A stretch of 64,000 bases of DNA. Origin: Eledone cirrhosa (Eukaryota). Both the position numbers and the translations under genes were made by a program. The stretch is taken from contig OZ024747.1 of the NCBI GenBank assembly GCA_964016885.1, positions 71,486,001 to 71,550,000 on the forward strand, given 5' to 3'. How positions within the stretch are numbered: position 1 is the first letter of the stretch; each line of letters starts with the position of its first letter. The notes beneath the pieces were generated by a model, which saw nothing but the letters and a program-made list of their open reading frames with translations, ran no database searches and was not told where the DNA came from. This document shows positions 1,843 to 48,700 of this stretch, in pieces.

Positions 1843-1857
1843 TCAGAGTTCGGAGTA

Positions 1858-2300: not shown

Positions 2301-2424
2301 GTCAATCGTATTTCATCTTCTGTTTCGATTCATCGAATTACCCTACTTTTCTACCAAGAACTGCAGCAGAACGTCGAAATAGGAAGTAAGGCCTACCTGC
2401 TTCGATCCATTATTGCATCTAGAC

Positions 2425-2690: not shown

Positions 2691-3120
2691 ATCTAGACAG
2701 TCGTGTTCACTAATCTAGTCGCCCGCAATAACACGTTCACCTTCGAGCAACCAGCCTGGCTCCTGTCTATACCCCATAATTATATGGAGCCCACAGATCA
2801 CAAACTTGTGATCTTTGTAGCTGGACAAACAATATTGTGGAGGCTATACGCTATCCTTATCCGCTAACTTTTTAAATACTCAATCTAGATATGACATGGA
2901 TGACCTGAGACGGTTTAGCCAAGTCCACATTATCATATTCGGTAAACCCAGCCGGCGCATGTCAGACATTTGGAACTGCTTGAAAATGTTTGTAAGTCTT
3001 TTACCCTGATTTTATATTCGTTACTACCACTGTGTGTGACTGGCGGGGGGGGGGGGGGGTAGTTGATGTTTTGTGTGGTATTGATATAGTGGTATAGTGA
3101 TATATTAGTAGTTAAATAAT

Positions 3121-21073: not shown

Positions 21074-21258
21074 AAGAATAAAGAATAACATGGTCGGCTG
21101 TACAAAAAGGGTTTATTTACAGTATTAACAATTGTTTCATTAATCAGGTGAGTACTCACAACCTTTAACTGTATTACCTTAAACGATACCTTGTTATCCT
21201 ATATATATATATATATACGTATATATATATATATATATACGTATATATATATACGTAT

Positions 21259-23677
21259 AAGCCATCCTCTCCTTCATCCACAACCTCAACCACAACCTCT
21301 TCTCGTTCCTCAGCTCCACCAAAGCCCGCAAGCTACACTCACTCCCCCCCCCCCCCCCCCCATCCACCACCACCCGCCCATCCCCATACGCCCACCTCTC
21401 CCCCGACCGCCACCCCCACCCAATCTCCACCCCTCACCACACCCTCCCTTCCCTCCCCTAACACCCAAACCCCACCCCTTGTTGTCACCATACCCCCTGA
21501 CCTCCCCCTCTCCGCACCTGAGCGCTCACTCCTTAGTAGAGGCCTTCGCTTCATACCCCACACTCCGCTCAGCGACGAGTTCCGCACCCGAACGGAAGTC
21601 GAGCGATTCGTGCGACTCACTAAGCTACAGGCACATTTCGGTCAAACGCCACCGGCTCCGGACGCGCCAGACCCGTTTCTCGCCCTGGGCCGACGACCAT
21701 CTTCTTGGACGCCGGCCCCAGGGCAATTTAGCACCCTGGACGCCTTCGTCGATGCCAGCCGTAGCGCAGTAAATCGTTTCGACTTCCGCCACCGTTTCAA
21801 ACGGCACAACATCTCACGGGGCGAACTCCTCGCTCTCCGCTCCCTCCGTAGCCGAGATGACATCGTCATCAAACCGGCGGACAAGGGAGGCGCCGTGGTG
21901 GTATGGCGCGCGGACCTCTACAAGGCCGAAGCCCTCAGGCAGCTCTGTAACCCCCTCTTTTACCGCCCTCTACCCTCCGATCCCACCCCCCTCTACCAAC
22001 AACAAGTCTCCTCCACCATCCAAGACCTTATCGCCTCCTCCCTCCTCCCCCCCACCGCTTCCCACCTCATCGTCCGCACACCCCGCACCCCCACCATCTA
22101 CTTCCTCCCCAAACTCCACAAACCCGACAACCCCGGCCGTCCCATCGTCTCCGCTTGCAACTGCCCCACCGAACTCATCTCCGCCTTTCTCGACTCCCTC
22201 CTCGCCCCCCTTGTCACCACCCTCCCCTCCCACATCTCTGACACCAACCACGCCCTGCGCCTTTTCGACTCCTTCACCTACCTACCCGGCCCTCAGCCAT
22301 TCCTCTTCACCCTAGACATCAAGTCCCTCTATACCGTCATCCCCCACGCCGACGGCCTTCGCGCCCTCAAACACTACCTCGACCTTCGCCCCTCCCCCAT
22401 TCCCTCCACCCCCACCCTCCTTCGCCTCGCCGAGCTGGTCCTCACCCTAAATTGTTTCTCCTTCTCGGGTGAGTTTTACCAACAGGTCACGGGGGTAGCC
22501 ATGGGCACAAGAATGGGCCCGAACTATGCCAACCTTTTTGTTGGCCATGTTGAGGCCCAAATCTTTGCCCAGTACACCGGCCCCACGCCCGAACTGTACG
22601 GTCGTTACATTGACGACTGTATCGGAGCCACGACCCTCACCCGAGTACAGCTCGACTCCTTTCTCTCCTTCTTCTGCTCCTTCCACCCCTCCCTCCACTT
22701 CACCACCTCTATCTCCACCACCCACGTCCACTTCTTGGACATCTCCGTCGCCTTCGACCCCTCCCACCACTCCCTCGTCACCTCCGCCTTCTTCAAACCC
22801 ACCGACTCCCACTCTTACCTCGACTTCACCTCTTCCCACCCCACCCACACTAAACTCTCCATTCCCTACTCCCAACTTCTCAGGATCCGCCGCCTCTGTA
22901 GCCGAGATGCTGACTTCGAGTCCCAAGCCCTTTCCCTAGTCAGCCATTTCATCCGCAGAGGTTACCCCCCCCTCTCTCGTCCACACCGCTCTCACCTGCG
23001 CCCGTGCTATCCCCCGCTCTACCACCCTCACCCCACGCCACCGCACACCCACCGTCTCCCCTTCCCCATCACCTACCACCCCTCCACCTTACCCCTCCAC
23101 CGCACCATCCGCCGCCTCTTCCGACACCTCCAGTCCGACCCCTCCACCTCCCACATCTTCCCAACCCCACCACTCCCCTCCTTCAAACGCGCACGCAATC
23201 TCCGCACCCTCCTCGTCCACAGCTCCCTACCCCCCAACCCACGCTCCGTTCCCCCCCCCCGGTTCCTTCCCCTGTTCTAGGCCCCGCTGCAACACCTGTC
23301 CCCACATCACCAACACCACCACCTTCCAGGGTCCCAACGGCCACCCTCTCTCGGTCCGGCATGCCTTCCGCTGCACCTCCTCCAACCTAGTCTACGGACT
23401 TCGTTGCACGAGGTGCAGCGCGACTTATGTCGGACAGACGGGACGCCGCCTGGCGGACCGAGTCACAGAGCACCTCCGGGACATTCGTCTCGGGGGCAGT
23501 TCCCCCATCGCCCGCCACTTTGGTGGCCCTGGACACTCCGCACACCATCTCACAGTCTGTGGCCTACTCCAGTGCCACGGAACACCCGCCCATCGCCTCA
23601 CGGTCGAACAACGTACTATCTTCCTCTTACAGACCCACACTCCCCCCGGCCTGAACTCCCCACCCTTATTCCTTTAG
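21259..23677 (+). pseudogene. PLE reverse transcriptase / GIY-YIG endonuclease ORF with frameshifts
   Basis: In-frame upstream of 21610: LSAPERSLLSRGLRFIP; then IKPADKGGAVVVW, YFLPKLHK, GRPIVS, TLDIKSLYT, GVAMGTRMGPNYANLF, RYIDD, FLD, KPTDSHSYL. After a shift at the C10 run (23251-23260): PCSRPRCNTC...NLVYGLRCTRCSATYVGQTGRRLADRVTEH...ARHF...E...GLN, stop at 23675-23677. Confidence 0.92.
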
Positions 23678-24153
23678 CGTTCGACCGCCCCCCTCCCCCA
23701 CTTATCCCCCACTAACACCACTAACACACCCCTCCTTTTCACCGCCCACCCCACACTAACAATACTAACACCTCCACTCCACCCCTCATCTAACCACCCT
23801 TCCCCAACTAACATACTAACATCCCTTCCCTCCCCTCTTCTCCTCCTCCCCCCTCCTTATCACACGCACACACTCACACCACCCACCCCACACGCAACTA
23901 ACATCACTAACACCCTCCAACCCCACGCACACGTACCCACACACCCTCGTACACCACCAACTCTACACACCCTACCCCCACTAACCCCCACTCACACCTG
24001 CATTCCACCCCTCCCCACCTCCCGTCTACTAACACCCACTAACACCTCCTCACCAAACTACACACACACCAGTACACCACACTCCCTCCATAGAACCACA
24101 CACACCCTTCTCTCCCCACTCCACACTCACTCATCCCACTAACACCCCTACTA

Positions 24154-24212
<59 letters not shown>

Positions 24213-25056
24213 CCTCACTCCAACTCTCACACCTACCCATTCTCGCCTCCCTACCATTCCGCTGACTGCTGCTATGCCCTTCCGACCACTGTCTCAGCAC
24301 CAACTGACCACAGCACTTCCACTGCTGACCACTTCCTGTTGCGCGCGCACCCCACATCTCTCCTCTTCCGACCACCGCTTCTTGGATTACCCACACGCGT
24401 TTTGACTTCCAACCAAAATCTCCATACATCCGTGTAACTTACCACTTTCAACCATCCTCTAACACCATCACCTATATAACTCACCCACACACACATCCCA
24501 AAACAAAAATTTTTTTTTTTTATCCACACGCCACCCACACCCACAACACGCTTAAACCACCACACACACGTGCTTCCCACCACATATTTACACCCTCAGC
24601 CCCCTGATTCCTCTCCCCCCACCCCCTATCCACACACGCACAGACCCTCCGACACACAAAAACACCCCCCACACACACCTTCCTGAACATGCAACCCCGT
24701 TCTTCCCCCAACCCTCACTTTCACATACACACACACACACACACACGCACACCTAACCACACACACCACCTTCAGCCCTCCCCGCTCGGACACCCCGTCT
24801 CCCTCTCCCCACTCCACCCGCCTCCACCTCTACTCACCCCACACCCTTCCACCACCTGTTTACCCCCCTTTTAATTTCAGTTTATTTTGATCATACCTTT
24901 ATTTTTAAATGTTCTCATTCCTTGTATTTTGATCATGCTTTATTTTTATTTATTATTTATTATATTTTTGTCTTTATTTGTTAATTTTTCATTCGCACCG
25001 TTTCCTTTCGCTATATGTCTCTCCACCACTCCCCTACACACCTTTTGAACTCTTAC

Positions 25057-25087
25057 CTGAAGAAGGGCTTATGCCCGAAACGTCGTC
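25057..25087 (+). ncRNA. Hammerhead-like core at Neptune PLE 3' end (no evident stem I)
   Basis: CTGAAGA-a-GGGC-ttat-GCCC-GAAA-CGtCG-TC. Confidence 0.55.
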
Positions 25088-25171
25088 CTCCACCTACCCC
25101 CCACTCTCCTGAGCGTGAATCTAATAAACATTTGTCGTACTGCCTCTCTGTTCTGTCCCTGTTCAATTTTT

Positions 25172-25209
<38 letters not shown>

Positions 25210-25261
25210 GTGTATATATATATACGTATATATATATACGTATATATATATATATATATAT

Positions 25262-26918
25262 ATGGAAAGTTATATTTAAAATTGTTGGGTTACAACTAGT
25301 AAATATTTATAACTGATATAAAAGCACTCGACAAATATTTGGAGTATATTTACAATATTAAATAAATGGAAACTATATTTATAAAACCATATTTATTTCA
25401 TTATATATATTTCAGGGATATCATATTAACAATATGCTATGCCTTCCTCAGACAAAATACAATATAAACAGTTTTATAGATAAATAGATTCGACATACCG
25501 TAACAACATCGACTTGCATTTGAAGAGGTTGATTTGGCAGTGAAAAAATTGTACACAGAGAGAAAGAAAGAGAGAAACAAGAAAGAAAGACAGAAAACGA
25601 AGAAAAGGAAGAAAAAGAAGAAATGCATTGAACAAAATAGAGAGATGGAAAGATAGATAAAGAGAAGAACTTCATGTAAAGAAACAGAAAGAGATATATA
25701 TATAGAGAGAGGAAATAGAGATAGATACATATATATATAGAAAATTAGGTAGTGGGAGGTCTGTTGAGTAACTGTATCAATGATACATTTATTTATTATT
25801 TATTTAGCTCTAGTACTAATGTAAGGGAGATATATAGAGAGAGAAAAAAATATATAGAGAGAAAAAATATAGCGAGAGAAAAAATTTAAAAATAACCAGA
25901 TATATGCGAGGCGTAAAAACCCTATGTTTTAACGTAGAGGTATTAGTATTTATAAAACATCCACTATATTGTAAATATCAGTATTCCTGAATGAGACAAG
26001 TATCCATAGTGTGTGAAAATTAATGATCTTATGTTTAGTTTTTTAAAAAAATTTCATATGTTTATGTGATAGCTACAAACATCCATGTGAATCTACATGA
26101 TCAACTCTGCAAAGCCTAAGTTCACGGAAAACATTCTCAATGTGGTATAAAAATTTGAGTATACATATATGTGTATTATTATTCCTGTCTTTACTCTACA
26201 AGATTATCTATCAAGCAGAAATAGAGAGCAGATTTCAATATACTAATAAAAAATATATATCAGAAACAAAACTAAAAAATAATAATAAGTAATAATAAAA
26301 TAGAAAACTAAAAAAATATTACGAAAGAATATTACATATTAAAAATATTACATATTAAAAAATTTACATATTAAAAATATTAAAAATAAAAATATTAGAA
26401 AATACTACAATAATAAAAAATAAAAATAAACCACAAAGATCAACCCTTCAAAATTAATTGACAATATATTGCCAAGTTCATTATAAGCATCAGAGTCGAA
26501 AAACAGATAAAGCCAAAAATTATCTAGCAAATCACATCTAGCAAAGATCATTTCAAAAAGTATTAGGATGCCCAATTTGGTCTACATGTGTTCTTATATT
26601 TAATATAGAAGTTTATCTAGTGTAACGTTTATTCGAAATATTTGGAGCATCAGCTTTTAGGGTAGCTTAATTTTTCATGAGGAATGTTTAAATAAAAATA
26701 AAAATAAAATAAAAATAAAAAATAAAAAAAGAATAAAAAGAAGGAATCAAAGATTTATCGGCTAGTTTCCCATATAAATATAAATCAAACTAAATATACT
26801 ACATTTTAAATTTAAATTTATATTTAAACGTTGAGTTTAATCTATGTTTGCAACAACTGAATAAATTTGTCCGTAGATTAAGGGAATTTTTAGATTTTAG
26901 TATAAAGAATATCTCCTC
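25262..26918 (-). repeat. 3' pseudo-LTR (includes the last 120 nt of the ORF)
   Basis: Near-identical to 29060-30716, with only a handful of differences seen. Confidence 0.95.
25388..25466 (-). ncRNA. Type I hammerhead ribozyme (3' pLTR copy)
   Basis: Minus: tatatt(g)tattttgt-CTGAGGA-AGG..catatt-gtt-aatatg..CCT-GAAA-TATATA-TA^-atgaaataaatatg; predicted cut between 25402 and 25401. Confidence 0.82.
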
Positions 26919-29012
26919 TGCGCAGAGGTCACATGTCTCAGAGGATGAATTAAAAGGAATCCCTCTTGAGACTATATTCCAAGCCGTCGAATATCTAACG
27001 TTATCTAGCTTAAGTTGCCAGAGTACGCCTGATAGTGCCGTTGAAGATTTTGTTCTTGGATCTGTGAAAGACTTCTTGTGGTTATTATAGCGAAGTTTAA
27101 ATTCCGTCGATGTGGAACCGACGTAGTTAAAAGAATTAGAGTCAGTATTAACATTACAATTGTATACTATATTTTTAACTAAGCAGTTGTTATTTAACGG
27201 ACATTTAGATCTATCTCTACAGTTACATTTGTTAACCTGTATATTATTTATGCTATTATCACTAGGTTTTAAGTTCTTATTATTTATTCTATTAATATTT
27301 TGTGCTAAATTTTTGGTGGATGAGTAGGTTAATTTTATTGTATGTCTATTGAAAATTGAGTGATACCTATGTGTTCTAGGGAAGCGATTATCAAGAGCTT
27401 TGAAAAATAGTTTAGCGATGTGGGTTTTAATGTTTAGTGAGAAAGGGGGGGCAAACCAAATTATGTTCCTAGTTCTATTTCTTTTTTGGCCTTTGGAATT
27501 ATTGTAATGCTTTCTATTATAGTTGTTAAGGTTGTTGCCGTAATTAAAAAAGTTGTTACTTTGCTTAGTTTGTCTATCATTATCTATGTACACAATCTTA
27601 TCAGCATATCCTGCTCTAGCTAATGCTTCATTATAGTATTGGGCTTTTTCGTCGAAAATCTTTCTATTCGACGAGATCCTAGAGATACGTTTTTGAACAG
27701 AGTTTACTATAGTGTTTTTGACAGATCTGGGGTGGTTAGAGTTAAAGTTGACATAGTTTAAGTTTTCATTCAACTTGTGAAAAGGATAGTGAAGACATGT
27801 GTTGAGATTTAATGTTATATCTAGGAAATTGACTATTCTATGGTTGTTCTCAATTTCTATTTTAAGATTAAAGTAATTAAAAAATTGTGTAATTTGTTTA
27901 CATTTTCTATTTAGTTCAGGGTTATTATTATCAATAAGTAAAAGCATGTCATCTCTATATAAACCTCCGGTAGTACCAGGTATTTTCCTATGTAGCGAAT
28001 TGATTAAAAATAAGCCCACAAGGTCAGTTACCTGAGCTGAGTCGGATGATCCCATAGTTATGTCAAAATTGCTATCTCTATCTGCTCTGGTCCATAGTTT
28101 GTCATTAAATTCTATCAAAGTTTTCCTAGCCGATAATATAATATGCATTTCATTGCTAGTTAGGTCAGTATGTTTGAATGCGTAATTTAGTGCCTTATTT
28201 AGTAGATTAGGGGTAATAGAAGAATAATAGTTAGCTATATCAAGTTGAATAAACTTATTATTATTGTTATATTTAATTTGCTTAAACCACTCAACAACCT
28301 CTCCAGTTCCCTTCCATAAGCTCAGGTTAGATAAACAATCCAAGTTCTTAATTTGTTGTATCACCCTGTCAAGAATGTTTTTGCTTAATTTGCCCAGGTC
28401 CGATTTTGATGGTGCGATCAATCTAACTGGCAGGTCATTTTCAAAATTCCTCTTGTGATCTTTCATATTGATCTTCGGTTTCCTGGGCACGAAAGGTTGT
28501 GTTCTGTTCTCAATTTCCAACTCGTGCATTATACAAGATGCTTCGACATTCATTTTCTCAAGTTCGGCCTTATCTGCTACCTTGTACTTTTTCCTCAGCT
28601 CTTTCAGTATGAGGCCATTATACATGTCTTTCTGCACTCCATAGAGGTTGTTGGTCTTGTCAGATTTCACCAAGATCTTCTCAGTTTTCTCTAAGCTCTC
28701 AATGTTATCCTTAATGCCTTTCAGATATTCCTGGCCTTTGAAGTTTCTCTTGAATTTGACCCCTTGTATGATAGAAATTATATCGTTTTCAAAGTCAGAT
28801 AAAAGTTTGTTAGGGGGTGGATTTCTTTTAGATTTGAAAACTTTGTTTAAGTCCGAGACATTTTCGTTTGTATTAGATTTATCAAAGTGGAATGCTCGCC
28901 ACCTGATTCTCCTTATAAAAGAGTCAGATTTATCAATTAATTGTTTTATAAAGTCTTTGTTTCTAGGTAGAGGTATGTCTTTTAGAGAGGAAGTAATCTT
29001 AAAGAATTCCAT
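26799..29012 (-). CDS. Intact 737-aa PLE reverse transcriptase with C-terminal GIY-YIG endonuclease (Hydra-clade-like)
   Basis: SLKDIPLP...IRRIRWRAFHF, KSDKT, PVRLIAP, IQLDIANYYSSI, TMGSSDSAQVTDLVG, LYRDD, VNFLDITL, SNHP; CNCRDRSKCPLNNNC, IVY-YVG-FKLRYNNHKKSF, CDLCAEE, CKHR; no stops. Confidence 0.93.
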   Translation of the reverse strand: MEFFKITSSLKDIPLPRNKDFIKQLIDKSDSFIRRIRWRAFHFDKSNTNENVSDLNKVFKSKRNPPPNKLLSDFENDIISIIQGVKFKRNFKGQEYLKGIKDNIESLEKTEKILVKSDKTNNLYGVQKDMYNGLILKELRKKYKVADKAELEKMNVEASCIMHELEIENRTQPFVPRKPKINMKDHKRNFENDLPVRLIAPSKSDLGKLSKNILDRVIQQIKNLDCLSNLSLWKGTGEVVEWFKQIKYNNNNKFIQLDIANYYSSITPNLLNKALNYAFKHTDLTSNEMHIILSARKTLIEFNDKLWTRADRDSNFDITMGSSDSAQVTDLVGLFLINSLHRKIPGTTGGLYRDDMLLLIDNNNPELNRKCKQITQFFNYFNLKIEIENNHRIVNFLDITLNLNTCLHYPFHKLNENLNYVNFNSNHPRSVKNTIVNSVQKRISRISSNRKIFDEKAQYYNEALARAGYADKIVYIDNDRQTKQSNNFFNYGNNLNNYNRKHYNNSKGQKRNRTRNIIWFAPPFSLNIKTHIAKLFFKALDNRFPRTHRYHSIFNRHTIKLTYSSTKNLAQNINRINNKNLKPSDNSINNIQVNKCNCRDRSKCPLNNNCLVKNIVYNCNVNTDSNSFNYVGSTSTEFKLRYNNHKKSFTDPRTKSSTALSGVLWQLKLDNVRYSTAWNIVSRGIPFNSSSETCDLCAEEIFFILKSKNSLNLRTNLFSCCKHRLNSTFKYKFKFKM

Positions 29013-29059
29013 TTTTCCAGTTATAATATAAAGCGCTCAACAGTATTGGAGCAAGATAC

Positions 29060-30716
29060 ATGGAAAGTTATATTTAAAATTGTTGGGTTACAACTAGTAA
29101 ATATTTATAACTGATATAAAAGCACTCGACAAATATTTGGAGTATATTTACAATATTAAATAAATGGAAACTATATTTATAAAACCATATTTATTTCATT
29201 ATATATATTTCAGGGATATCATATTAACAATATGCTATGCCTTCCTCAGACAAAATACAATATAAACAGTTTTATAGATAAATAGATTCGACATACCGTA
29301 ACAACATCGACTTGCATTTGAAGAGGTTGATTTGGCAGTGAAAAAATTGTACACAGAGAGAAAGAAAGAGAGAAACAAGAAAGAAAGACAGAAAACGAAG
29401 AAAAGGAAGAAAAAGAAGAAATGCATTGAACAAAATAGAGAGATGGAAAGATAGATAAAGAGAAGAACTTCATGTAAAGAAACAGAAAGAGATATATATA
29501 TAGAGAGAGGAAATAGAGATAGATACATATATATATAGAAAATTAGGTAGTGGGAGGTCTGTTGAGTAACTGTATCAATGATACATTTATTTATTTATTT
29601 ATTTAGCTCTAGTACTAATGTAAGGGAGATATATAGAGAGAGAAAAAAATATAGAGAGAGAAAAAATATAGCGAGAGAAAAAATTTAAAAATAACCAGAT
29701 ATATGCGAGGCGTAAAAACCCTATGTTTTAACGTAGAGGTATTAGTATTTATAAAACATCCACTATATTGTAAATATCAGTATTCCTGAATGAGACAAGT
29801 ATCCATAGTGTGTGAAAATTAATGATCTTATGTTTAGTTTTTTAAAAAAATTTCATATGTTTATGTGATAGCTACAAACATCCATGTGAATCTACATGAT
29901 CAACTCTGCAAAGCCTAAGTTCACGGAAAACATTCTCAATGTGGTATAAAAATTTGAGTATACATATATGTGTATTATTATTCCTGTCTTTACTCTACAA
30001 GATTATCTATCAAGCAGAAATAGAGAGCAGATTTCAATATACTAATAAAAATTTATATCAGAAACAAAACTAAAAAATAATAATAAGTAATAATAAAATA
30101 GAAAACTAAAAAAATATTACGAAAGAATATTACATATTAAAAATATTACATATTAAAAAATTTACATATTAAAAATATTAAAAATAAAAATATTAGAAAA
30201 TACTACAATAATAAAAAATAAAAATAAACCACAAAGATCAACCCTTCAAAATTAATTGACAATATATTGCCAAGTTCATTATAAGCATCAGAGTCGAAAA
30301 ACAGATAAAGCCAAAAATTATCTATCAAATCACATCTAGCAAAGATCATTTCAAAAAGTATTAGGATGCCCAATTTGGTCTACATGTGTTCTTATATTTA
30401 ATATAGAAGTTTATCTAGTGTAACGTTTATTCGAAATATTTGGAGCATCAGCTTTTAGGGTAGCTTAATTTTTCATGAGGAATGTTTAAATAAAAATAAA
30501 AATAAAATAAAAATAAAAAATAAAAAAAGAATAAAAAGAAGGAATCAAAGATTTATCGGCTAGTTTCCCATATAAATATAAATCAAACTAAATATACTAC
30601 ATTTTAAATTTAAATTTATATTTAAACGTTGAGTTTAATCTATGTTTGCAACAACTGAATAAATTTGTCCGTAGATTAAGGGAATTTTTAGATTTTAGTA
30701 TAAAGAATATCTCCTC
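29060..30716 (-). repeat. 5' pseudo-LTR
   Basis: Direct repeat of 25262-26918. Confidence 0.95.
29186..29264 (-). ncRNA. Type I hammerhead ribozyme (5' pLTR copy)
   Basis: Identical to 25388-25466; predicted cut 187 nt upstream of the ORF ATG. Confidence 0.82.
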
Positions 30717-30952
30717 CTTCTTTTTCTTCCTTTTCTTCGTTTTCTGTCTTTCTTTCTTGTTTTTTTCACTGCCAAATCAACCTCTTCAAATGCAAGTCGA
30801 TGTTGTTACGGTATGTCGAATCTATTTATCTATAAAACTGTTTATATTGTATTTTGTCTGAGGAAGGCATAGCATATTGTTAATATGATATCCCTGAAAT
30901 ATATATAATGAAATAAATATGGTTTTATAAATATAGTTTCCATTTATTTAAT

Positions 30953-30958
<6 letters not shown>
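30717..30958 (+). repeat. Inverted copy of pLTR end (reverse complement of ~25351-25620 with a ~26-bp internal deletion)
   Basis: Direct comparison; joins (TA)n at ...aatattgta. Confidence 0.92.
30843..30921 (+). ncRNA. Type I hammerhead ribozyme (inverted copy)
   Basis: tatattgtattttgtCTGAGGAaggcatagcatattgttaatatgatatccctGAAAtatatataatgaaataaatatg. Confidence 0.82.
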
Positions 30959-31397
<439 letters not shown>

Positions 31398-35181: not shown

Positions 35182-36716
35182 TATCGACATTCAAGATATT
35201 CATATGTCAAGGTTTGCTGACAAACTCATCAGTGATTGAAACGAAATCTGAAGACGTCATATTTAAACGTGAAAGAGGATATATTACGAAATTGATGATT
35301 TAGCACAAACAATGAAGAGAAATATCAATAATCGGGTATCAAAATAAAGTCCACAGACTTGGTATCCAAGTGACTAATCTTTATTCTTTATACTTACTTT
35401 TATGTAAATATGTAATAGAACTAAAGGTGTTAGAAGAATGATACTGTAATACATCGCATTCATTAAAATAAAGATATTATTATAAAATAAGTTAGAAAGT
35501 TATTTTGAAATACAACAAACTATTATAAGCTACACTTTCTTGGTTTTCACCCCCACCACAACTCACCCCCAAGAAATCCATTTAAAGCTAAAAATTTCGT
35601 GATATTTATTGAACTAGGGATGTAAATTGAGAAAATGGTCAGAAGTTAAGTAAGAAAAATATCGAGTTCTTTTCTATCGAATCACTGATATCTCTTGACA
35701 TGTTCTAAATATCTTAATTAGCCAAAGGGCATCTATTCTGGTTAAATAAAGCCATCGTGTAAGCTGAGAGGCTTCTTCAGGGTTCACTTTTTAGAAGCTA
35801 GATATTCAGTGGAGAGCATATATAAGGAGAGAAAGAAAGAACAGAAATATCGATAGATATGAAAACAAAAAAAAAGTAAAAAGAAAATATTGGAAAAGAA
35901 ATGTATAAAAACTGAATTAGCAAAATGTATAAGAAGAATAAATACTATTACTTAGATAAAATGCTGTCAAAAATCAGTGATACATTTTTGCATCCGTTTG
36001 GCTGCAAGGCAAATGGCCATTTTAAGTGACTGGTCATGCAAAAAGTAAGTTTTGGTCATTATAGTGGAAGGGAGGCGAGAGATATTAAGTAAGACTGCGT
36101 TAAGTCAGAGATCTTTTAAAGAAACCATGATCTGTTCAATGAGATTTGTTCAACGGTGAGAAATATTGTTCTTGTAGGCATACATACGGCATGATTAAAG
36201 AGGTGCTTACCAAATCTCCTTTAATATAGATGAAGACTTCTCAATGGTGGTGATAGTAGTGGTGGTTGTGGTGCTGGTGGTGGTGGGGAGATGATAGTGG
36301 TGGTGGTAGTAGTGGTAGTGGTGGTGTGTGTCCTAGTCGTGGCCTCACTGCAATGTGGGTGGAGATTGGGGAGGCGGAGGAGGAGGAAGACAATGGGAAG
36401 AGGTGGTGGTGGTGATTATCGTGATCATGGTTGTAGTTGCAGTGGTGTTGGTGGGTGACGTAGTTGTGGCCTCACTGCAATGTGGGTGGAGATTGAGGAG
36501 GCAGAGCAGGAGACAGAGGAAGAGGTGGCGATAGTGGTAGTGGTGGTGTTGGTGGTGGTGGTGGTATTATCACGGTGACGCTTTTGTAAAACGTTAGTGG
36601 TGTTTTTGCAGCAAGATGTTGATGGTAGTGGTCAGATAATGGTGGTGTTAGTAATGGTAGGATGTTGACAGAGATAGTGGTGGTGATGGTGGTAGTGGGG
36701 GAGAGATGTTTGTGAT

Positions 36717-39700
36717 AGTAGTGATGGTAGAATGTTAGAGATGATTGGTAGTGGTGGTAGTAGTGATGGTAGAATGTTAGAGATGATTGGTAGTGGTGGT
36801 AGTAGTGATGGTAGAATGTTAGAGATGGTTGGTTGTGGTGGTAGTAGAGTTGGTAGAATGTTAGAGATGGTTGGTTGTGGTGGTAGTAGTGATGGTAGAA
36901 TGTTAGAGATGATTGGTAGTGGTGGTAGTAGTGATGGTAGAATGTTAGAGATGATTGGTAGTGGTGGTAGTAGTGATGGTAGAATGTTAGAGATGGTTGG
37001 TTGTGGTGGTAGTAGAGTTGGTAGAATGTTAGAGATGGTTGGTTGTGGTGGTAGTAGTGATGGTAGAATGTTAGAGATGGTTGGTTGTGGTGGTAGTAGT
37101 GATGGTAGAATGTTAGAGATGATTGGTAGTGGTGGTAGTAGTGATGGTAGAATGTTAGAGATGGTTGGTTGTGGTGGTAGTAGTGATGGTAGAATGTTAG
37201 AGATGATTGGTAGTGGTGGTAGTAGAGTTGGTAGAATGTTAGAGATGGTTGGTTGTGGTGGTAGTAGTGATGGTAGAATGTTAGAGATGATTGGTAGTGG
37301 TGGTAGTAGTGATGGTAGAATGTTAGAGATGTTTGGTAGTGGTGGTAGTAGTGTTGGTAGAATGTTAGAGATGGTTGGTAGTGGTGGTTGTAGTGTTGGT
37401 AGAATGTTAGAGATGGTTGGTAGTGGTGGTAGTAGTGTTGGTAGAATGTTAGAGATGGTTGGTAGTGGTGGTAGTAGTGTTGGTAGAATGTTAGAGATGG
37501 TTGCTAGTGGTGGTAGTAGTGTTGGTAGAATGTTAGAGATGGTTGGTAGCGGTGGTAGTAGTGTTGGTAGAATGTTAGAGATGGTTGGTAGTGGTGGTAG
37601 TAGTGTTGGTAGAATGTTAGAGATGGTTGGTAGTGGTGGTAGTAGAGTTGGTAGAATGTTAGAGATGGTTGGTAGTGGTGGTAGTAGTGTTGGTAGAATG
37701 TTAGAGATGGTTGGTAGTGGTGGTAGTAGTGTTGGTAGAATGTTAGAGATGGTTGGTAGTGGTGGTTGTAGTGTTGGTAGAATGTTAGAGATGGTTGGTA
37801 GTGGTGGTAGTAGTGTTGGTAGAATGTTAGAGATGGTTGGTAGTGGTGGTAGTAGTGTTGGTAGAATGTTAGAGATGGTTGGTAGTGGTGGTAGTAGTGG
37901 TGGTAGTAGTGTTGGTAGAATGTTAGAGATGGTTGGTAGTGGTGGTAGTACTGTTGGTAGAATGTTAGAGATGGTTGGTAGTGGTGGTAGTAGAGTTGGT
38001 AGAATGTTAGAGATGGTTGGTAGTGGTGGTAGTAGTGTTGGTAGAATGTTAGAGATGTTTGGTAGTGGTGGTAGTAGTGTTGGTAGAATGTTAGAAATCG
38101 TTGGTAGTGGTGGTAGTACTGTTGGTAGAATGTTAGAGATGGTTGGTAGTGGTGGTAGTAGTGTTGGTAGAATGTTAGAGATGGTTGGTAGTGGTGGTAG
38201 TAGTGTTGGTAGAATGTTAGAGATGGTTGGTAGTGGTGGTAGTACTGTTGGTAGAATGTTAGAGATGGTTGGTAGTGGTGGTTGTAGTGATGGTAGAATG
38301 TTAGAGATGGTTGGTAGTGGTGGTTGTAGTGATGGTAGAATGTTAGAGATGGTTGGTAGTGGTGGTAGTTGTGTTGGTAGAATGTTAGAGATGGTTGGTA
38401 GTGGTGGTAGTAGCATTGGTAGAATGTTAGAGATGATGGGTAGTGGTGGTAGTAGAGTTGGTAGAATGTTAGAGATGGTTGGTAGTGGTGGTAGTAGCAT
38501 TGGTAGAATGTTAGAGATGATGGGTAGTGGTGGTAGTAGAGTTGGTAGAATGTTAGAGATGGTTGGTAGTGGTGGTTGTAGTGATGGTAGAATGTTAGAG
38601 ATGGTTGGTAGTGGTGGTAGTAGTGTTGGTAGAATGTTAGAGATGATGAGTAGTGGTGGTAGTAGTGTTGGTAGAATGTTAGAGATGGTTGGTAGTGGTG
38701 GTAGTAGTGTTGGTAGAATGTTAGAGATGGTTGGTAATGGTGGTAGTAGTGTTGGTAGAATGTTAGAGATGGTTGGTAGTGGTGGTAGTAGTGTTGGTAG
38801 AATGTTAGAGATGGTTGGTAATGGTGGTAGTAGTGTTGGTAGAATGTTAGAGATGGTTGGTAGTGGTGGTAGTAGTGTTGGTAGAATGTTAGAGATGTTT
38901 GGTAGTGGTGGTAGTAGTGTTGGTAGAATGTTAGAGATGGTTGGTAATGGTGGTAGTAGTGTTGGTAGAATGTTAGAGATGGTTGGTAGTGGTGGTAGTA
39001 GTGTTGGTAGAATATTAGAGATGTTTGGTAGTGGTGGTAGTAGTGTTGGTAGAATGTTAGAGATGGTTGGTAGTGGTGGTAGTAGTGTTGGTAGAATGTT
39101 AGAGATGGTTGGTAGTGGTGGTAGTAGTGTTGGTAGAATATTAGAGATGTTTGGTAGTGGTGGTAGTAGTGTTGGTAGAATGTTAGAGATGGTTGGTAGT
39201 GGTGGTAGTAGTGTTGGTAGAATGTTAGAGATGGTTGGTAGTGGTGGTAGTAGAGTTGGTAGAATGTTAGAGATGATTGGTAGTGGTGGTAGTAGTGTTG
39301 GTAGAATGTTAGAGATGATAGGTAGTGGTGGTAGTAGCGTTGGTAGAATGTTAGAGATGATGGGTAGTGGTGGTAGTAGTGTTGGTAGAATGTTAGAGAG
39401 GGTTGGTAGTGGTGGTAGTAGTGTTGGTAGAATGTTAGAGATGATTGGTAGTGGTGGTAGTAGTGTTGGTAGAATGTTAGAGATGGTTGGTAGTGGTGGT
39501 AGTAGCATTGGTAGAATGTTAGAGATGATTGGTAGTGGTGGTAGTAGAGTTGGTAGAATGTTAGAGATGATTGGTAGTGGTGGTAGTAGTGTTGGTATAA
39601 TGTTAGAGATGGTTGGTAATGGTGGTAGTAGCATTGGTAGAATGTTAGAGATGGTTGGTAGTGGTGGTAGTAGTGTTGGTAGAAGGTTAGAGATGGTTGG

Positions 39701-42700
39701 TAGTGGTGGTAGTAGCATTGGTAGAATGTTAGAGATGGTTGGTAGTGGTGGTAGTAGTGTTGGTAGAAGGTTAGAGATGGTTGGTAGTGGTGGTAGTAGT
39801 GTTGGTAGAAGGTTAGAGATGGTTGGTAATGGTGGTAGTAGCATTGGTAGAATGTTAGAGATGGTTGGTAGTGGTGGTAGTAGTGTTGGTAGAAGGTTAG
39901 AGATGGTTGGTAGTGGTGGTAGTAGTGTTGGTAGAAGGTTAGAGATGGTTGGTAATGGTGGTAGTAGCATTGGTAGAATGTTAGAGATGGTTGGTAGTGG
40001 TGGTAGTAGTGTTGGTAGAATGTTAGAGATGATTGGTAGTGGTGGTAGTAGAGTTGGTAGAATGTTAGAGATGGTTGGTTGTGGTGGTAGTAGTGTTGGT
40101 AGAATGTTAGAGATGATTGGTAGTGGTGGTAGTAGCATTGGTAGAATGTTAGAGATGATTGGTAGTGGTGGTAGTAGAGTTGGTAGAATGTTAGAGATGA
40201 TTGGTAGTGGTGGTAGTAGCATTGGTAGAATGTTAGAGATGGTTGGTAGTGGTGGTAGTAGTGTTGGTAGAATGTTAGAGATGGTTGGTTGTGGTGGTAG
40301 TAGTGTTGGTAGAATGTTAGAGATGGTTGGTTGTGGTGGTAGTAGTGTTGGTAGAATGTGAGAGATGATTGGTAGTGGTGGTAGTAGAGTTGGTAGAATG
40401 TTAGAGATGGTTGGTAGTGGTGGTAGTAGTGTTGGTAGAATGTTAGAGATGGTTGGTTGTGGTGGTAGTAGTGTTGGTAGAATGTGAGAGATGATTGGTA
40501 GTGGTGGTAGTAGTGTTGGTAGAATGTTAGAGATGGTTGGTAGTGGTGGTAGTAGCATTGGTAGAATGTTAGAGATGGTTGGTTGTGGTGGTAGTAGTGT
40601 TGGTAGAATGTTAGAGATGGTTGGTTGTGGTGGTAGTAGTGTTGGTAGAATGTGAGAGATGATTGGTAGTGGTGGTAGTAGTGTTGGTAGAATGTTAGAG
40701 ATGGTTGGTAGTGGTGGTAGTAGCATTGGTAGAATGTTAGAGATGATTGGTAGTGGTGGTAGTAGAGTTGGTAGAATGTTAGAGATGATTGGTAGTGGTG
40801 GTAGTAGCATTGGTAGAATGTTAGAGATGGTTGGTAGTGGTGGTAGTAGTGTTGGTAGAATGTTAGAGATGGTTGGTTGTGGTGGTAGTAGTGTTGGTAG
40901 AATGTTAGAGATGGTTGGTTGTGGTGGTAGTAGTGTTGGTAGAATGTGAGAGATGATTGGTAGTGGTGGTAGTAGAGTTGGTAGAATGTTAGAGATGGTT
41001 GGTAGTGGTGGTAGTAGCATTGGTAGAATGTTAGAGATGGTTGGTAGTGGTGGTAGTAGTGTTGGTAGAATGTTAGAGATGGTTGGTTGTGGTGGTAGTA
41101 GTGTTGGTAGAATGTTAGAGATGGTTGGTTGTGGTGGTAGTAGTGTTGGTAGAATGTGAGAGATGATTGGTAGTGGTGGTAGTAGTGTTGGTAGAATGTT
41201 AGAGATGGTTGGTAGTGGTGGTAGTAGCATTGGTAGAATGTTAGAGATGATTGGTAGTGGTGGTAGTAGTGTTGGTAGAATGTTAGAGATGGTTGATAGT
41301 GGTGGTAGTAGCATTGGTAGAATGTTAGAGATGATGGGTAGTGGTGGTAGTAGAGTTGGTAGAATGTTAGAGATGGTTGGTAGTGGTGGTAGTAGAGTTG
41401 GTAGAATGTTAGAGATGGTTGGTTGTGGTGGTAGTAGTGTTGGTAGAATGTTAGAGATGATTGGTAGTGGTGGTAGTAGTGTTGGTAGAATGTTAGAGAT
41501 GGTTGGTAGTGGTGGTAGTAGCATTGGTAGAATGTTAGAGATGATGGGTAGTGGTGGTAGTAGAGTTGGTAGAATGTTAGAGATGGTTGGTAGTGGTGGT
41601 AGTAGAGTTGGTAGAATGTTAGAGATGGTTGGTTGTGGTGGTAGTAGTGTTGGTAGAATGTTAGAGATGATTGGTAGTGGTGGTAGTAGAGTTGGTAGAA
41701 TGTTAGAGATGATTGGTAGTGGTGGTAGTAGTGTTGGTAGAATGTTAGAGATGATTGGTAGTGGTGGTAGTAGTGTTGGTAGAATGTTAGAGATGATTGG
41801 TAGTGGTGGTAGTAGTGTTGGTAGAATGTTAGAGATGATTGGTAGTGGTGGTAGTAGCATTGGTAGAATGTTAGAGATGATTGGTAGTGGTGGTAGTAGT
41901 GTTGGTAGAATGTTAGAGATGATTGGTAGTGGTGGTAGTAGTGTTGGTAGAATGTTAGAGATGATTGGTAGTGGTGGTAGTAGTGTTGGTAGAATGTTAG
42001 AGATGATTGGTAGTGGTGGTAGTAGTGTTGGTAGAATGTTAGAGATGATTGGTAGTGGTGGTAGTAGCATTGGTAGAATGTTAGAGATGATTGGTAGTGG
42101 TGGTAGTAGTGTTGGTAGAATGTTAGAGATGATTGGTAGTGGTGGTAGTAGTGTTGGTAGAATGTTAGAGATGATTGGTAGTGGTGGTAGTAGTGTTGGT
42201 AGAATGTTAGAGATGATTGGTAGTGGTGGTAGTAGTGTTGGTAGAATGTTAGAGATGATTGGTAGTGGTGGTAGTAGCATTGGTAGAATGTTAGAGATGA
42301 TTGGTAGTGGTGGTAGTAGTGTTGGTAGAATGTTAGAGATGATTGGTAGTGGTGGTAGTAGTGTTGGTAGAATGTTAGAGATGGTTGGTAGTGGTGGTAG
42401 TAGTGTTGGTAGAATGTTAGAGATGGTTCGTAGTGGTGGTAGTAGTGATGGTAGAATGTTAGAGATGGTTGGTAGTGGTGGTAGTGGTGGTAGTAGTGTT
42501 GGTAGAATGTTAGAGATGATTGGTAGTGGTGGTAGTAGCATTGGTAGAATGTTAGAGATGATTGGTAGTGGTGGTAGTAGTGTTGGTAGAATGTTAGAGA
42601 TGGTTGGTAGTGGTGGTAGTAGTGTTGGTAGAATGTTAGAGATGATGGGTAGTGGTGGTAGTAGAGTTGGTAGAATGTTAGAGATGATTGGTAGTGGTGG

Positions 42701-45700
42701 TAGTAGTGTTGGTAGAATGTTAGAGATGATTGGTAGTGGTGGTAGTAGCATTGGTAGAATGTTAGAGATGATGGGTAGTGGTGGTAGTAGAGTTGGTAGA
42801 ATGTTAGAGATGATTGGTAGTGGTGGTAGTAGTGTTGGTAGAATGTTAGAGATGATTGGTAGTGGTGGTAGTAGCATTGGTAGAATGTTAGAGATGATGG
42901 GTAGTGGTGGTAGTAGAGTTGGTAGAATGTTAGAGATGATTGGTAGTGGTGGTAGTAGAGTTGGTAGAATGTTAGAGATGGTTGGTAGTGGTGGTAGTAG
43001 AGTTGGTAGAATGTTAGAGATGGTTGGTTGTGGTGGTAGTAGTGTTGGTAGAATGTTAGAGATGATTGGTAGTGGTGGTAGTAGCATTGGTAGAATGTTA
43101 GAGATGATGGGTAGTGGTGGTAGTAGAGTTGGTAGAATGTTAGAGATGGTTGGTAGTGGTGGTAGTAGCATTGGTAGAATGTTAGAGATGGTTGGTAGTG
43201 GTGGTAGTAGTGTTGGTAGAATGTTAGAGATGGGTGGTAGTGGTGGTAGTGGTGGTAGTAGTGATGGTAGAATGTTAGAGATGGTTGGTAATGGTGGTAG
43301 TAGTGTTGGTAGAATGTTAGAGATGGTTGGTAGTGGTGGTAGTAGTGTTGGTAGAATGTTAGAGATGGTTGGTATCGGTGGTCGTAGAGTTGGTAGAATG
43401 TTAGAGATGGTTGGTAGTAGTGGTAGTAGTGTTGGTAGAATGTTAGAGATGGTTGGTAGTGGTGGTCGTAGAGTTGGTAGAATGTTAGAGATGGTTGGTA
43501 GTGGTGGTAGTGGTGTTGGTAGAATGTTAGAGATGGTTGGTAGTGGTGGTCGTAGAGTTGGTAGAATGTTAGAGATGGTTGGTAGTGGTGGTCGTAGAGT
43601 TGGTAGAATGTTAGAGATGGTTGGTAGTGGTGGTCGTAGAGTTGGTAGAATGTTAGAGATGGTTGGTAGTGGTGGTCGTAGAGTTGGTAGAATGTTAGAG
43701 ATGGTTGGTAGTGGTGGTAGTAGTGTTGGTAGAATGTTAGAGATGGTTGGAATTGGTGGTAGTGGTGTTGCTAGAATGTTAGATATGGTTGGTAGTGGTG
43801 GTAGTAGTGTTGGTAGAATGTTAGAGATGGTTGGTAGTGGTGGTAGTAGTGATTGTAGAATGTTAGAGATGGTTGGTAGTGGTGGTACTAGTGTTGGTAG
43901 AATGTTAGAGATGGTTGGTAGTGGTGGTAGTGGTGTTGGTAGAATGTTAGAGATGGTTGGTAGTGGTGGTAGTAGCATTGGTAGAATGTTAGAGATGATG
44001 AGTAGTGGTGGTAGTAGAGTTGGTAGAATGTTAGAGATGGTTGGTAGTGGAGGTAGTAGTGTTGGTAGAATGTTAGAGATGTTTGGTAGTGGTGGTAGTA
44101 GTGTTGGTAGAATGTTAGAGATGGTTGGTAGTGGTGGTAGTACTGTTGGTAGAATGTTAGAGATGGTTGGTAGTGGTGGTAGTAGTGTTGGTAGAATGTT
44201 AGAGATGATTGGTAGTGGTGGTAGTGGTGTTGGTAGAATGTTAGAGATGGTTGGTAGTGGTGGTAGTAGTGTTGGTAGAATGTGAGAGATGATTGGAAGT
44301 GGTGGTAGTACTGTTGGTAGAATGTTGAGATGGTTGGTAGTGGTGGTAGTAGTGTTGGTAGAATGTTAGAGATGGTTGGTAGTGGTGGTAGTAGTGTTGG
44401 TAGAATGTTAGAGATGGTTGGTAGTGGTGGTAGTAGAGTTGGTAGAATGTTAGAGATGGTTGGTAGTGGTGGTAGTAGAGTTGGTAGAATGTTAGAGATG
44501 GTTGGTAGTGGAGGTAGTAGGGGTGGTAGAATGTTAGAGATGTTTGGTAGTGGTGGTAGTAGTGTTGGTAGAATGTTAGAGATGGTTGGTAGTGGTGGTA
44601 GTACTGTTGGTAGAATGTTAGAGATGGTTGGTAGTGGTGGTAGTAGTGTTGGTAGAATGTTAGAGATGGTTGGTAGTGGTGGTAGTAGTGTTGGTAGAAT
44701 GTTAGAGATGGTTGGTAGTGGTGGTAGTACTGTTGGTAGAATGTTAGAGATGGTTGGTAGTGGTGGTAGTAGAGTTGGTAGAATGTTAGAGATGGTTGGT
44801 AGTGGTGGTTGTAGTGATGGTAGAATGTTAGAGATGGTTGGTAGTGGTGGTTGTAGTGATGGTAGAATGTTAGAGATGGTTGGTAGTGGTGGTAGTGGTG
44901 TTGGTAGAATGTTAGAGATGGTTGGTAGTGGTGGTAGTAGCATTGGTAGAATGTTAGAGATGATGGGTAGTGGTGGTAGTAGAGTTGGTAGAATGTTAGA
45001 GATGGTTGGTAGTGGTGGTTGTAGTGATGGTAGAATGTTAGAGATGGTTGGTAGTGCTGGTAGTAGTTTTGGTAGAATGTTAGAGATGATGAGTAGTGGT
45101 GGTAGTAGTGTTGGTAGAATGTTAGAGATGGTTGGTAGTGGTGGTAGTAGTGTTGGTAGAATGTTAGAGATGGTTGGTAATGGTGGTAGTAGTGTTGGTA
45201 GAATGTTAGAGATGGTTGGTAGTGGTGGTAGTAGTGTTGGTAGAATGTTAGAGATGTTTGGTAGTGGTGGTAGTAGTGTTGGTAGAATGTTAGAGATGGT
45301 TGGTAATGGTGGTAGTAGTGTTGGTAGAATGTTAGAGATGGTTGGTAGTGGTGGTAGTGGTGTTGCTAGAATGTTAGATATGGTTGGTAGAGGTGGTAGT
45401 AGTGTTGGTAGAATGTTAGAGATGGTTGGTTGTGGTGGTAGTAGTGATGGTAGAATGTTAGAGATAGTTGGTAGTGGTGGTAGTAGTGTTGGTAGAATGT
45501 TAGAGTTGTTTGGTAGTGGTGGTAGTGGTGTTGGTAGAATGTTAGAGATGGTTGGTAGTGGTGGTAGTAGTGTTGGTAGAATGTTAGAGATGATTGGTAG
45601 TGGTGGTAGTGGTGTTGGTAGAATGTTAGAGATGGTTGGTAGTGGTGGTAGTAGTGTTGGTAGAATGTGAGAGATGATTGGAAGTGGTGGTAGTAGTGTT

Positions 45701-48700
45701 GGTAGAATGTTAGAGATGGTTGGTAGTGGTGGTAGTAGTGTTGGTAGAATGTTAGAGATGATTGGTAGTGGTGGTAGTAGAGTTGGTAGAATGTTAGAGA
45801 TGATGGGTAGTGGTGGTAGTAGTGTTGGTAGAATGTTAGAGATGATTGGTAGTGGTGGTAGTAGTGTGGTAGAATGTTAGAGATGGTTGGTAGTGGTGGT
45901 AGTAGTGTTGGTAGAATGTTAGAGATGGTTGGTAGTGGTGGTAGTAGTGTTGGTAGAATGTTAGAGATGATTGGTAGTGGTGGTAGTAGTGTTGGTAGAA
46001 TGTTAGAGATGGTTGGTAGTGGTGGTAGTAGTGTTGGTAGAATGTTAGAGATGATTGGTAATGGTGGTAGTAGTGTTGGTAGAATGTTAGAGATGATTGG
46101 TAGTGGTGGTAGTAGAGTTGGTAGAATGTTAGAGATGGTTGGTAGTGGTGGTAGTAGAGTTGGTAGAATGTTAGAGATGATTGGTAGTGGTGGTAGTTGT
46201 GTTGGTAGAATGTTAGAGATGGTTGGTAGTGGTGGTAGTAGTGTTGGTAGAATGTTAGAGATGGTTGGTAGTGGTGGTAGTTGTGTTGGTAGAATGTTAG
46301 AGATGGTTGGTAGTGGTGGTAGTAGTGTTGGTAGAATGTTAGAGATGGTTGGTAGTGGTGGTAGTAGTGTTGGTAGAATGTTAGAGATGGTTGGTAGTGG
46401 TGGTAGTAGTGTTGGTAGAATGTTAGAGATGATTGGTAGTGGTGGTAGTTGTGTTGGTAGAATGTTAGAGATGGTTGGTAGTGGTGGTAGTAGTGTTGGT
46501 AGAATGTTAGAGATGGTTGGTAGTGGTGGTAGTAGTGTTGGTAGAATGTTAGAGATGATTGGTAGTGGTGGTAGTAGTGTTGGTAGAATGTTAGAGATGT
46601 TTGGTAGTGGTGGTAGTAGAGTTGGTAGAATGTTAGAGATGGTTGGTAGTGGTGGTAGTAGTGTTGGTAGAATGTTAGAGATGATTGGTAGTGGTGGTAG
46701 TAGTGTTGGTAGAATGTTAGAGATGGTTGGTAGTGGTGGTAGTTGTGTTGGTAGAATGTTAGAGATGGTTGGTAATGGTGGTAGTAGTGTTGGTAGAATG
46801 TTAGAGATGATTGGTAGTGGTGGTAGTAGTGTTGGTAGAATGTTAGAGATGATTGGTAGTGGTGGTAGTAGAGTTGGTAGAATGTTAGAGATGGTTGGTA
46901 GTGGTGGTAGTAGTGTTGGTAGAATGTTAGAGATGGTTGGTAGTGGTGGTAGTTGTGTTGGTAGAATGTTAGAGATGGTTGGTAATGGTGGTAGTAGTGT
47001 TGGTAGAATGTTAGAGATGATTGGTAGTGGTGGTAGTTGTGTTGGTAGAATGTTAGAGATGGTTGGTAGTGGTGGTAGTAGTGTTGGTAGAATGTTAGAG
47101 ATGATTGGTAGTGGTGGTAGTAGAGTTGGTAGAATGTTAGAGATGGTTGGTAGTGGTGGTAGTAGTGTTGGTAGAATGTTAGAGATGGTTGGTAGTGGTG
47201 GTAGTAGTGTTGGTAGAATGTTAGAGATGGTTGGTAGTGGTGGTAGTAGTGTTGGTAGAATGTTAGAGATGATTGGTAGTGGTGGTAGTAGAGTTGGTAG
47301 AATGTTAGAGATGGTTGGTAGTGGTGGTAGTAGTGTTGGTAGAATGTTAGAGATGGTTGGTAGTGGTGGCAGTAGTGTTGGTAGAATGTTAGAGATGGTT
47401 GGTAGTGGTGGTAGTACTGTTGGTAGAATGTTAGAGATGGTTGGTTGTGGTGGTAGTAGTGTTGGTAGAATGTTAGAGATGGTTGGTAGTGGTGGTAGTA
47501 GTGTTGGTAGAATGTTAGAGATGATTGGTAGTGGTGGTAGTAGAGTTGGTAGAATGTTAGAGATGGTTGGTAGTGGTGGTAGTAGAGTTGGTAGAATGTT
47601 AGAGATGGTTGGTAGTGGTGGTAGTAGAGGTGTTAGAATGTTAGAGATGGTTGGTAGTGTTGGTGGTAGTGGTGTTGGTAGAATGTTAGAGATGGTTGGT
47701 AGTTGTGGTAGTAGTGTTGGTAGAATGTTAGAGATGGTTGGTAGTGGTGGTGGTAGTGGTGTTGGTAGAATGTTAGAGATGGTTGGTAGTGGTGGTAGTA
47801 GTGTTGGTAGAATGTTAGAGATGATTGGTAGTGGTGGTAGTAGAGTTGGTAGAATGTTAGAGATGGTTGGTAGTGGTGGTAGTAGTGTTGGTAGAATGTT
47901 AGAGATGGTTGGTAGTGGTGTCAGTAGTGTTGGTAGAATGTTAGAGATGGTTGGTAGTGGTGGTAGTAGTGTTGGTAGAATGTTAGAGATGGTTGGTAGT
48001 GGTGGTGGTAGTGGTGTTGGTAGAATGTTAGAGATGGTTGGTAGTGGTGGTAGTAGTGTTGGTAGAATGTTAGAGATGGTTGGTAGTGGTGGTAGTAGTG
48101 TTGGTAGAATGTTAGAGATGATTGGTAGTGGTGGTAGTAGAGTTGGTAGAATGTTAGAGATGGTTGGTAGTGGTGGTAGTAGTGTTGGTAGAATGTTAGA
48201 GATGATTGGTAGTGGTGGTAGTAGAGTTGGTAGAATGTTAGAGATGGTTGGTAGTGGTGGTAGTAGTGTTGGTAGAATGTTAGAGATGGTTGGTAGTGGT
48301 GGTAGTGGTGGTAGTAGTGTTGGTAGAATGTTAGAGATGATTGGTAGTGGTGGTAGTAGTGATGGTAGAATGTTAGAGATGGTTGGTAATGGTGGTAGTA
48401 GTGTTGGTAGAATGTTAGAGATGATTGGTAGTGGTGGTAGTAGTGTTGGTAGAATGTTAGAGATGGTTGGTAATGGTGGTAGTAGTGTTGGTAGAATGTT
48501 AGAGATGATTGGTAGTGGTGGTAGTAGCATTGGTAGAATGTTAGTGATGGTTGGTAGTGGTGGTAGTAGTGTTGGTAGAATGTTAGAGATGGTTGGTAAT
48601 GGTGGTAGTAGTGTTGGTAGAATGTTAGAGATGGTTGGTTGTGGTGGTAGTAGTGTTGGTAGAATGTTAGAGATGGTTGGTAGTGGTGGTAGTAGTGTTG

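Follow-up and report, generated by a model that had tools for sequence, protein, structure and literature searches.

The Penelope-like element (PLE) inserted at positions 25262-30956 of the 64-kb stretch of Eledone cirrhosa DNA analysed here (the window) carries a duplicated bulged hairpin, and each of the two different outer termini of the insertion lies a few nucleotides upstream of one hairpin copy. We think it highly probable that these hairpins direct twin priming of reverse transcription at both termini. The priming would most likely take place on a 3798-nt circular RNA, cut by hammerhead ribozymes and re-ligated, with the hairpins as docks for the RT-endonuclease, a reading drawn from the sequence to which we give a probability of about 0.45. 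Once hairpin-directed twin priming is granted, a circular template has an even chance. Neither the kind of element nor the circle idea is new; what is new and useful is the bulged hairpin, a duplicated motif found at each of the two start sites and tied to both termini. The circle idea for autonomous PLEs is already in print: Cervera and de la Pena (2014; PMC4209133) proposed that PLE hammerheads cut a precursor and that the ligated circles template more-than-unit reverse transcription, explaining the head-to-tail tandems, so that the novelty attached to this idea in the original prediction falls away. The records listed from the literature of 2022 onwards contained no test of the circle for an autonomous PLE, and the accessible part of PMC5680766 held nothing further on mechanism.

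The insertion is flanked by (TA)n on both sides (25175-25262 on the left and 30957-31396 on the right), within which a target-site duplication is unreadable. On the minus strand, an intact open reading frame of 737 aa (26799-29012), encoding a reverse transcriptase with a C-terminal GIY-YIG endonuclease, occupies the space between two direct repeats, with some overlap. The 3' repeat copy (25262-26918) contains the end of the ORF, a 1.4-kb 3' UTR, a hammerhead, hairpin B and a tail, and the 5' pseudo-LTR (pLTR; 29060-30716) is a second, 5'-truncated unit. The two repeats are offset by 3798-3799 nt and differ in 5 of 1658 aligned columns. The direct part measures 5455 nt for a unit of 3798 nt, i.e. 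1.436 units, as in the ∼1.44 rounds of copying proposed originally. However, the end of the insertion had been placed at 30716, whereas it continues on the plus strand as an inverted, 5'-truncated arm (30717-30956), which is joined head-to-head, carries a third hammerhead and ends at the short terminus; the single copying run of 5455 nt that had been envisaged leaves this second arm out. The arm is a copy of 29418-29151 of the unit minus 28 nt (29345-29372). At its 5' end, the long arm breaks off at 30716, within a perfect palindrome of 14 nt (26914-26927 in the unit) that may be an RT pause site. The standard layout of PLEs comprises a partial tandem, an inverted copy on the 5' side and a tail on one end (PMC8557442, PMC3846280).

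The assignment of the element relies on its protein, its ribozyme and its target. Scoring of 8000 candidates gave 28 relatives of the 737-aa protein, at 30-42% identity, and a Pfam search of this protein returned no match. An alignment with 13 relatives places RWR at residues 36-38, DKT at 117-119, the linker CxCx5C at C595-x-C597-x5-C603 and, on either side of E699 and N711, CxxC at C693xxC696 and CxH at C720xH722; YRDD and residues Y616, Y629, G631, R640, E699 and N711 are conserved, and by eye CCHH is absent from the same alignment. The single ORF has neither an N-terminal endonuclease nor an N-terminal CxC, the endonuclease being C-terminal. An RWK-type motif, the change from DKG to DKT, CxCX5C, CxxC, CxH, a (TA)n target and a hammerhead are the diagnostics given for the Hydra clade (PMC8557442). 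By its motif set, hammerhead and (TA)n target, we therefore assign the element to the intact endonuclease-bearing (EN+) PLEs of this clade. Its unit of 3798 nt exceeds the <3 kb typical of the Hydra clade, a size that is typical rather than a strict criterion (published lengths 1080-3045; PMC8557442 supplement). A Naiad/Chlamys PLE was rejected because these have an N-terminal GIY-YIG domain, and a non-LTR retrozyme, a non-coding and non-autonomous short repeat, because an intact RT-EN ORF is present. The elements described by Craig et al. (2021, PMC8557442) share with ours the single ORF with C-terminal GIY-YIG, RW(K/R), DKT, the linker, CxxC and CxH, as well as the type I hammerhead near the 3' end, the (TA)n target, the partial tandem, the inverted 5' arm and the one-sided tail; Penelope-13_HM likewise has a 5' inverted copy (supplement of the same paper). 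The window element differs from them by its 3798-nt unit with a 1.4-kb 3' UTR, its ∼90-nt tail and an all A-U stem III, and the accessible part of PMC8557442 contains no description of a twin hairpin.

The positions of the two termini are fixed relative to the hairpins. The long terminus (site A; 25262-25264, equivalent to 29062-29060) lies 138-140 nt beyond the cut, 2 nt being common with (TA)n, in agreement with the 140 nt originally given. The short terminus (site B) corresponds to 29151-29149, the inverted arm ending 49-51 nt beyond its cut, and a tail of ∼90 nt (29060-29150, minus strand) runs from the short to the long terminus. Hairpin A (29032-29052, minus strand), formed by a 4-bp stem, a UU bulge and an upper stem, begins 7-9 nt downstream of the long terminus and is present in one copy. 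Hairpin B (29121-29143, minus strand, with a copy at 25323-25345 in the 3' repeat) has an A-U first pair and a UC bulge, begins 5-7 nt downstream of the short terminus and is a degenerate homologue of hairpin A found in both repeats. Hence, the original statement that hairpin A occurs only once stands for the exact sequence (29052-29032) but not for the motif, given the homologues at 29143-29121 and 25345-25323. The idea of internal priming in the 5' UTR next to a hairpin gains from this, the hairpin being a motif duplicated across the clade and linked to the two termini.

In public DNA runs, other copies of the element join (TA)n at 29143 (4857 reads in run X14, a reduced-representation library), at 29064 (5 contigs, X1) and at 25345 (2 contigs, X5), all of these among the 24 of 1019 loose-end rows listed. 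In 28 related loci, 20 of 30 direct-repeat ends precede a hairpin by -1 to 12 nt, and they represent 20 of 25 families; three more lie at 27-86 nt and seven have no hairpin within 150 nt. The hairpin-adjoining ends are divided equally between the first and the second hairpin, with 10 each (9 and 11 by script, L054 having been reassigned to the first on inspection). Under a generous chance model this proximity has a P of ∼1e-8, with rows that are not fully independent and chance TA matches that shorten the distances. At one locus (L030), the tailed end is the inverted end. Two others show a (TA)9 run between units exactly before hairpin A (L005, 455-472; L035, 693-710), which may reflect self-insertion, slippage or assembly collapse. 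Ten relatives among the matches listed, judged by eye to have both of their ends within a contig, were compared: five start at or inside the hairpin of their end site (L009, L012, L023, L044 and L072) and five do not (L008, L014, L048, L050 and L054). Such 'one-lap' copies of about one unit are a lead only, as selection for whole ORFs and short-read collapse of longer repeats force lengths of about one unit.

The hairpin motif, GCUC...UU-GAGC-ACU, consists of a 4-bp stem GCUC/GAGC, a 2-nt 3' bulge, an upper stem and a trailing ACU. The survey covered 78 related loci, taken from the top 80 of 440 confirmed ones, and the bulge letters of 101 distinct hairpins were UU in 68, UC in 21 and UA in 12. 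A twin between the predicted cut and the ATG was found in 34 of 64 families. The 135 nt upstream of the ORF held two copies in 41 of 63 starts, one copy in 17 and none in 5 (window included), corresponding to a density of 11.6 per kb versus 0.05 per kb in ORF bodies. The two hairpins are spaced by 91 in the window, compared with 55-83 in 33 other families. Two loose matches to the hairpin pattern on the minus strand (19692-19669 and 20761-20724) have no ORF match near and are probably due to chance.

The pairing of the upper stem was examined with one row per family (34 twin families) against 5000 shuffles, which ignore relatedness; the lower stem had served to select the motif and so received no covariation test. 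For hairpin B, the 5' hairpin, the first upper pair is formed in 34 of 34 families (21 U-A and 13 C-G; shuffle mean 26.0), the second in 30 (mean 20.1) and the third in 28 (mean 13.7), none of these values being reached in 5000 shuffles. Covariation is weaker for hairpin A, the ATG-proximal one, with upper pairs 1-3 formed in 34, 18 and 20 of 34 families and reached in 8, 244 and 4 of 5000 shuffles, respectively. Registers with a 1- or 3-nt bulge gave nothing in the pairing test. Hairpin B alone folds at only -2.0 kcal/mol, which, like the weaker covariation of hairpin A, counts against the proposed role. Rfam, run on 12 of the 78 related loci, returned no family for the twin hairpin. We found no earlier description of it in the literature, although figures, Repbase notes, bioRxiv supplements and subscription papers (e.g. 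Arkhipova 2006) may hold one.

A descriptor for type I hammerheads, built from general hammerhead rules after the motif had been noticed, matches three times in the 64-kb window, each time inside the PLE at 25262-30956. Two matches are on the minus strand (25394-25459, predicted cut 25402/25401; 29192-29257, predicted cut 29200/29199) and one on the plus strand (30850-30915, predicted cut after 30907). The predicted ribozyme comprises CUGAGGA, stem II, GAAA, a palindromic AUAUAUAU stem III and an 8-bp stem I. The descriptor found no match in 1000 dinucleotide shuffles of one unit, nor in 2000 shuffles of the last 300 nt of the unit. The two predicted minus-strand cuts are indeed 3798 nt apart, as stated originally; however, the equality of this spacing with the repeat offset, which had been put forward as evidence, is a tautology and carries no information, since the ribozyme is part of the repeat. 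An Rfam search of the element at E<=1 gave low-complexity miRNA matches alone and no hammerhead, and on 12 of the 78 related loci it gave one low-complexity miRNA match and two Hammerhead_1 matches (L065, opposite strand). The stability of two folds containing the hammerhead was not above that of shuffles (z -0.38 and -0.12). In related families seen in public DNA reads, stem II has other letters and its hairpin is still formed, which supports the predicted hammerhead. Of the 78 related loci surveyed, 58 have a hammerhead match on the plus strand. The 15.2-16.2 pair of stem III is C-G in 46 of 47 family hammerheads; here it is U15.2-A16.2, in a stem III made up of A-U pairs throughout, with a self-duplex of -3.2 kcal/mol. 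Given this all A-U stem III, the window hammerhead may cleave poorly.

Read depth is higher over the hammerhead-bearing 3' end (25297-25493, 29040-29236 and 30813-31000) than over the ORF, by a factor in the tens. The public runs listed for the element include no RNA run, a result that has no bearing on its expression. In X1, hammerhead bins reach 242,000-844,000 versus 7,000-68,000 for ORF bins, these being depth figures and not copy numbers. A side reading of this excess, together with the families that have the same end and another stem II, is the existence of many short truncated or non-autonomous copies.

The clade, the architecture, the two fixed termini, the conservation and covariation of the hairpins and the seamless hammerhead junctions can be read directly in the DNA; the mechanism that we propose for them is a reconstruction. 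A transcript across both direct repeats would be cut at its two hammerheads, through a dimeric fold and perhaps with the assistance of proteins, and the cut RNA would be closed by a host ligase into a 3798-nt circle. The GIY-YIG domain would nick both (TA)n strands. The hairpins likely dock the RT-endonuclease and set the start of reverse transcription; each would seat one RT, and each nicked (TA)n strand would prime just upstream of one hairpin. The 3' end priming before hairpin A would be extended over 1.44 units to give the tailed arm, and the other, priming before hairpin B, over ∼270 template nt to give the tail-less arm. The two cDNAs would then be joined head-to-head and filled in. The seating hairpin would not be copied, because it lies 3' of the start. 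A linear transcript of the locus would have hairpin B but no hairpin A behind the ORF and should produce tail-less daughters only, devoid of hairpin. The locus could thus not rebuild the tailed form from a linear transcript, which mildly favours a circle over multi-unit read-through or a template jump; tailed partial tandems would have to come from a circle, from a jump made with precision or from a donor longer than two units. Slightly more tentatively than the circle itself, we suggest that Hydra-clade PLEs may possess an undescribed duplicated RNA origin, in which two bulged hairpins would each seat one RT of a dimer. Replication would then proceed by rolling reverse transcription on a circular RNA of 2.4-3.8 kb that is generated by a ribozyme and codes for protein. 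With the two hairpins, this single scheme would explain the presence of a tail, of an inverted arm and of a partial tandem.

The original prediction was right that the template ran through the hammerhead site without interruption and exceeded one linear unit, a property common to a circle, a multimer or a precise jump. It went too far in holding that the geometry implies a circle, since the same geometry is displayed by Naiads lacking hammerheads and anole PLE hammerhead mutants insert unchanged. The circle is plausible and not implied by geometry. The strongest competitor, which we nevertheless regard as rather unlikely, is twin priming on uncut linear read-through RNA from a donor array of at least ∼2.4 units, in which case the hammerhead would be dispensable for copying. 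In the only PLE system studied in vitro, that of anole (PMC11167929, accessible part), the RT starts at two internal positions, one at either boundary of the tail, and both strands are extended, in line with the twin priming proposed here. Uncut RNA is the dominant substrate in this assay, hammerhead mutants insert normally and no RNA-seq read ends at the cut. Moreover, Naiads without canonical hammerheads give the same structures, i.e. partial tandems, inverted copies and tails (PMC8557442). Tandems of at least two near-identical units at L021 and L057 are possible linear donors, and the weak stem III of the window hammerhead points in the same direction. On the other hand, each round of such copying would lose the used hairpin and at least one unit, so that the arrays would need another route of rebuilding, and the retention of the hammerhead in most of the related loci would be left unexplained.

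A clearly unlikely alternative would involve hammerhead-cut linear monomers and no ligation, the RT jumping from the 5' end to the 3' end of the same or of another monomer. End-to-end jumping is a property of non-LTR reverse transcriptases such as R2. Jumps of this type would account both for the conservation of the hammerhead and for more-than-unit products. Some short head-to-head insertions fit them as well, as one of the arms frequently stops close to the cut (joints 30904-30914; among the 15 of 34 joints listed); however, this clustering of joints may reflect a detection limit, related families diverging just upstream of the cut, and we set it aside on account of possible detection bias. 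Against jumping, all three cut-site crossings are letter-perfect. The three junction copies across the cut site are identical, which argues against sloppy jumps, and we count this identity (n=3) in favour of the circle. The least probable explanation, a partial tandem arising at the DNA level when a second copy inserted at the junction, by unequal crossing-over or by mis-assembly, can draw on the self-targeting of the pLTR suggested for the anole element (PMC11167929) and on the fact that no read piece among those listed spans the whole stretch, but it is opposed by a junction that is seamless and not (TA)n, by the letters common to both repeats that nearly all public-run contigs lack (25933/29732, 26009/29808, 26114/29913 and 26815/30613), which would fit a single template or an array of recent origin, and by the continuity of hammerhead, hairpin and ATG in dozens of relatives.

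Hairpin-directed twin priming has partial counterparts in known systems. In L1 twin priming, the second target strand primes internally and a 5' inversion results. The window element shares with L1 the internal second-strand priming and the 5' inversion, whereas a hairpin would set its second site and its two cDNAs would overlap on the template. With Poseidon PAc of Anolis (Frangieh et al. 2024, PMC11167929), it has in common two internal starts flanking the tail, extension of both strands, an AT-rich target and a hammerhead upstream of the start sites. However, the PAc starts lie within the ORF, in one AC-rich stem-loop, while here they lie in the 5' leader, each immediately upstream of a bulged hairpin of its own; more-than-unit synthesis is not addressed in the accessible part of that study. 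Animal non-LTR retrozymes also carry a type I hammerhead in tandem repeats; they form circles (PMC7229834), which speaks for the circle proposed here, and, according to a 2026 preprint (bioRxiv 10.64898/2026.07.22.740005), derive from PLE pLTRs. They differ in being non-coding, mostly a few hundred nt long and non-autonomous with a demonstrated circular RNA, whereas the window element is autonomous and its circle is proposed.

The window contains a second case of the rule linking hairpins and termini. An unrelated (TA)n-flanked, head-to-head mini insertion of 155 nt (54289-54443, minus strand), which belongs to another family, is built on a 75-nt inverted repeat centred in hammerhead stem III, with a predicted cut after 54386, and has a bulged hairpin (54360-54334) located 6 nt beyond its short end and followed by a tail. 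Other features of the window were noted. A second PLE on the plus strand (21169-25174) stands tail-to-tail with the element at 25262-30956 at the same (TA)n; it encodes RT (Pfam RVT_1, E 2.5e-4) and GIY-YIG (E 0.026) in two frames, has a CX4CxxC linker like Neptune, and has a hammerhead core at ∼25057-25090 with stem I unpaired. At 62195-62457, another inverted repeat between (TA)n runs (210 nt, 96%), extended by 44 nt on one of its sides, looks like a mini insertion with a tail from yet another PLE family. Finally, a long G-rich satellite of tandem 42-bp repeats, with a GC skew near 0.98, occupies ∼36500-51300.

The reverse transcriptases of PLEs form the sister group of telomerase. The hairpins bear on the way in which PLEs choose their start sites on RNA and make more-than-unit copies. 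A short hairpin that covaries and whose two copies are linked to the two termini constitutes a defined cis element for mutation in the existing in vitro assay. The twin hairpin also makes the circle proposal of 2014 sharply testable, since a donor of 1.4 units would give tailed, ORF-bearing daughters only via a circle or a jump.
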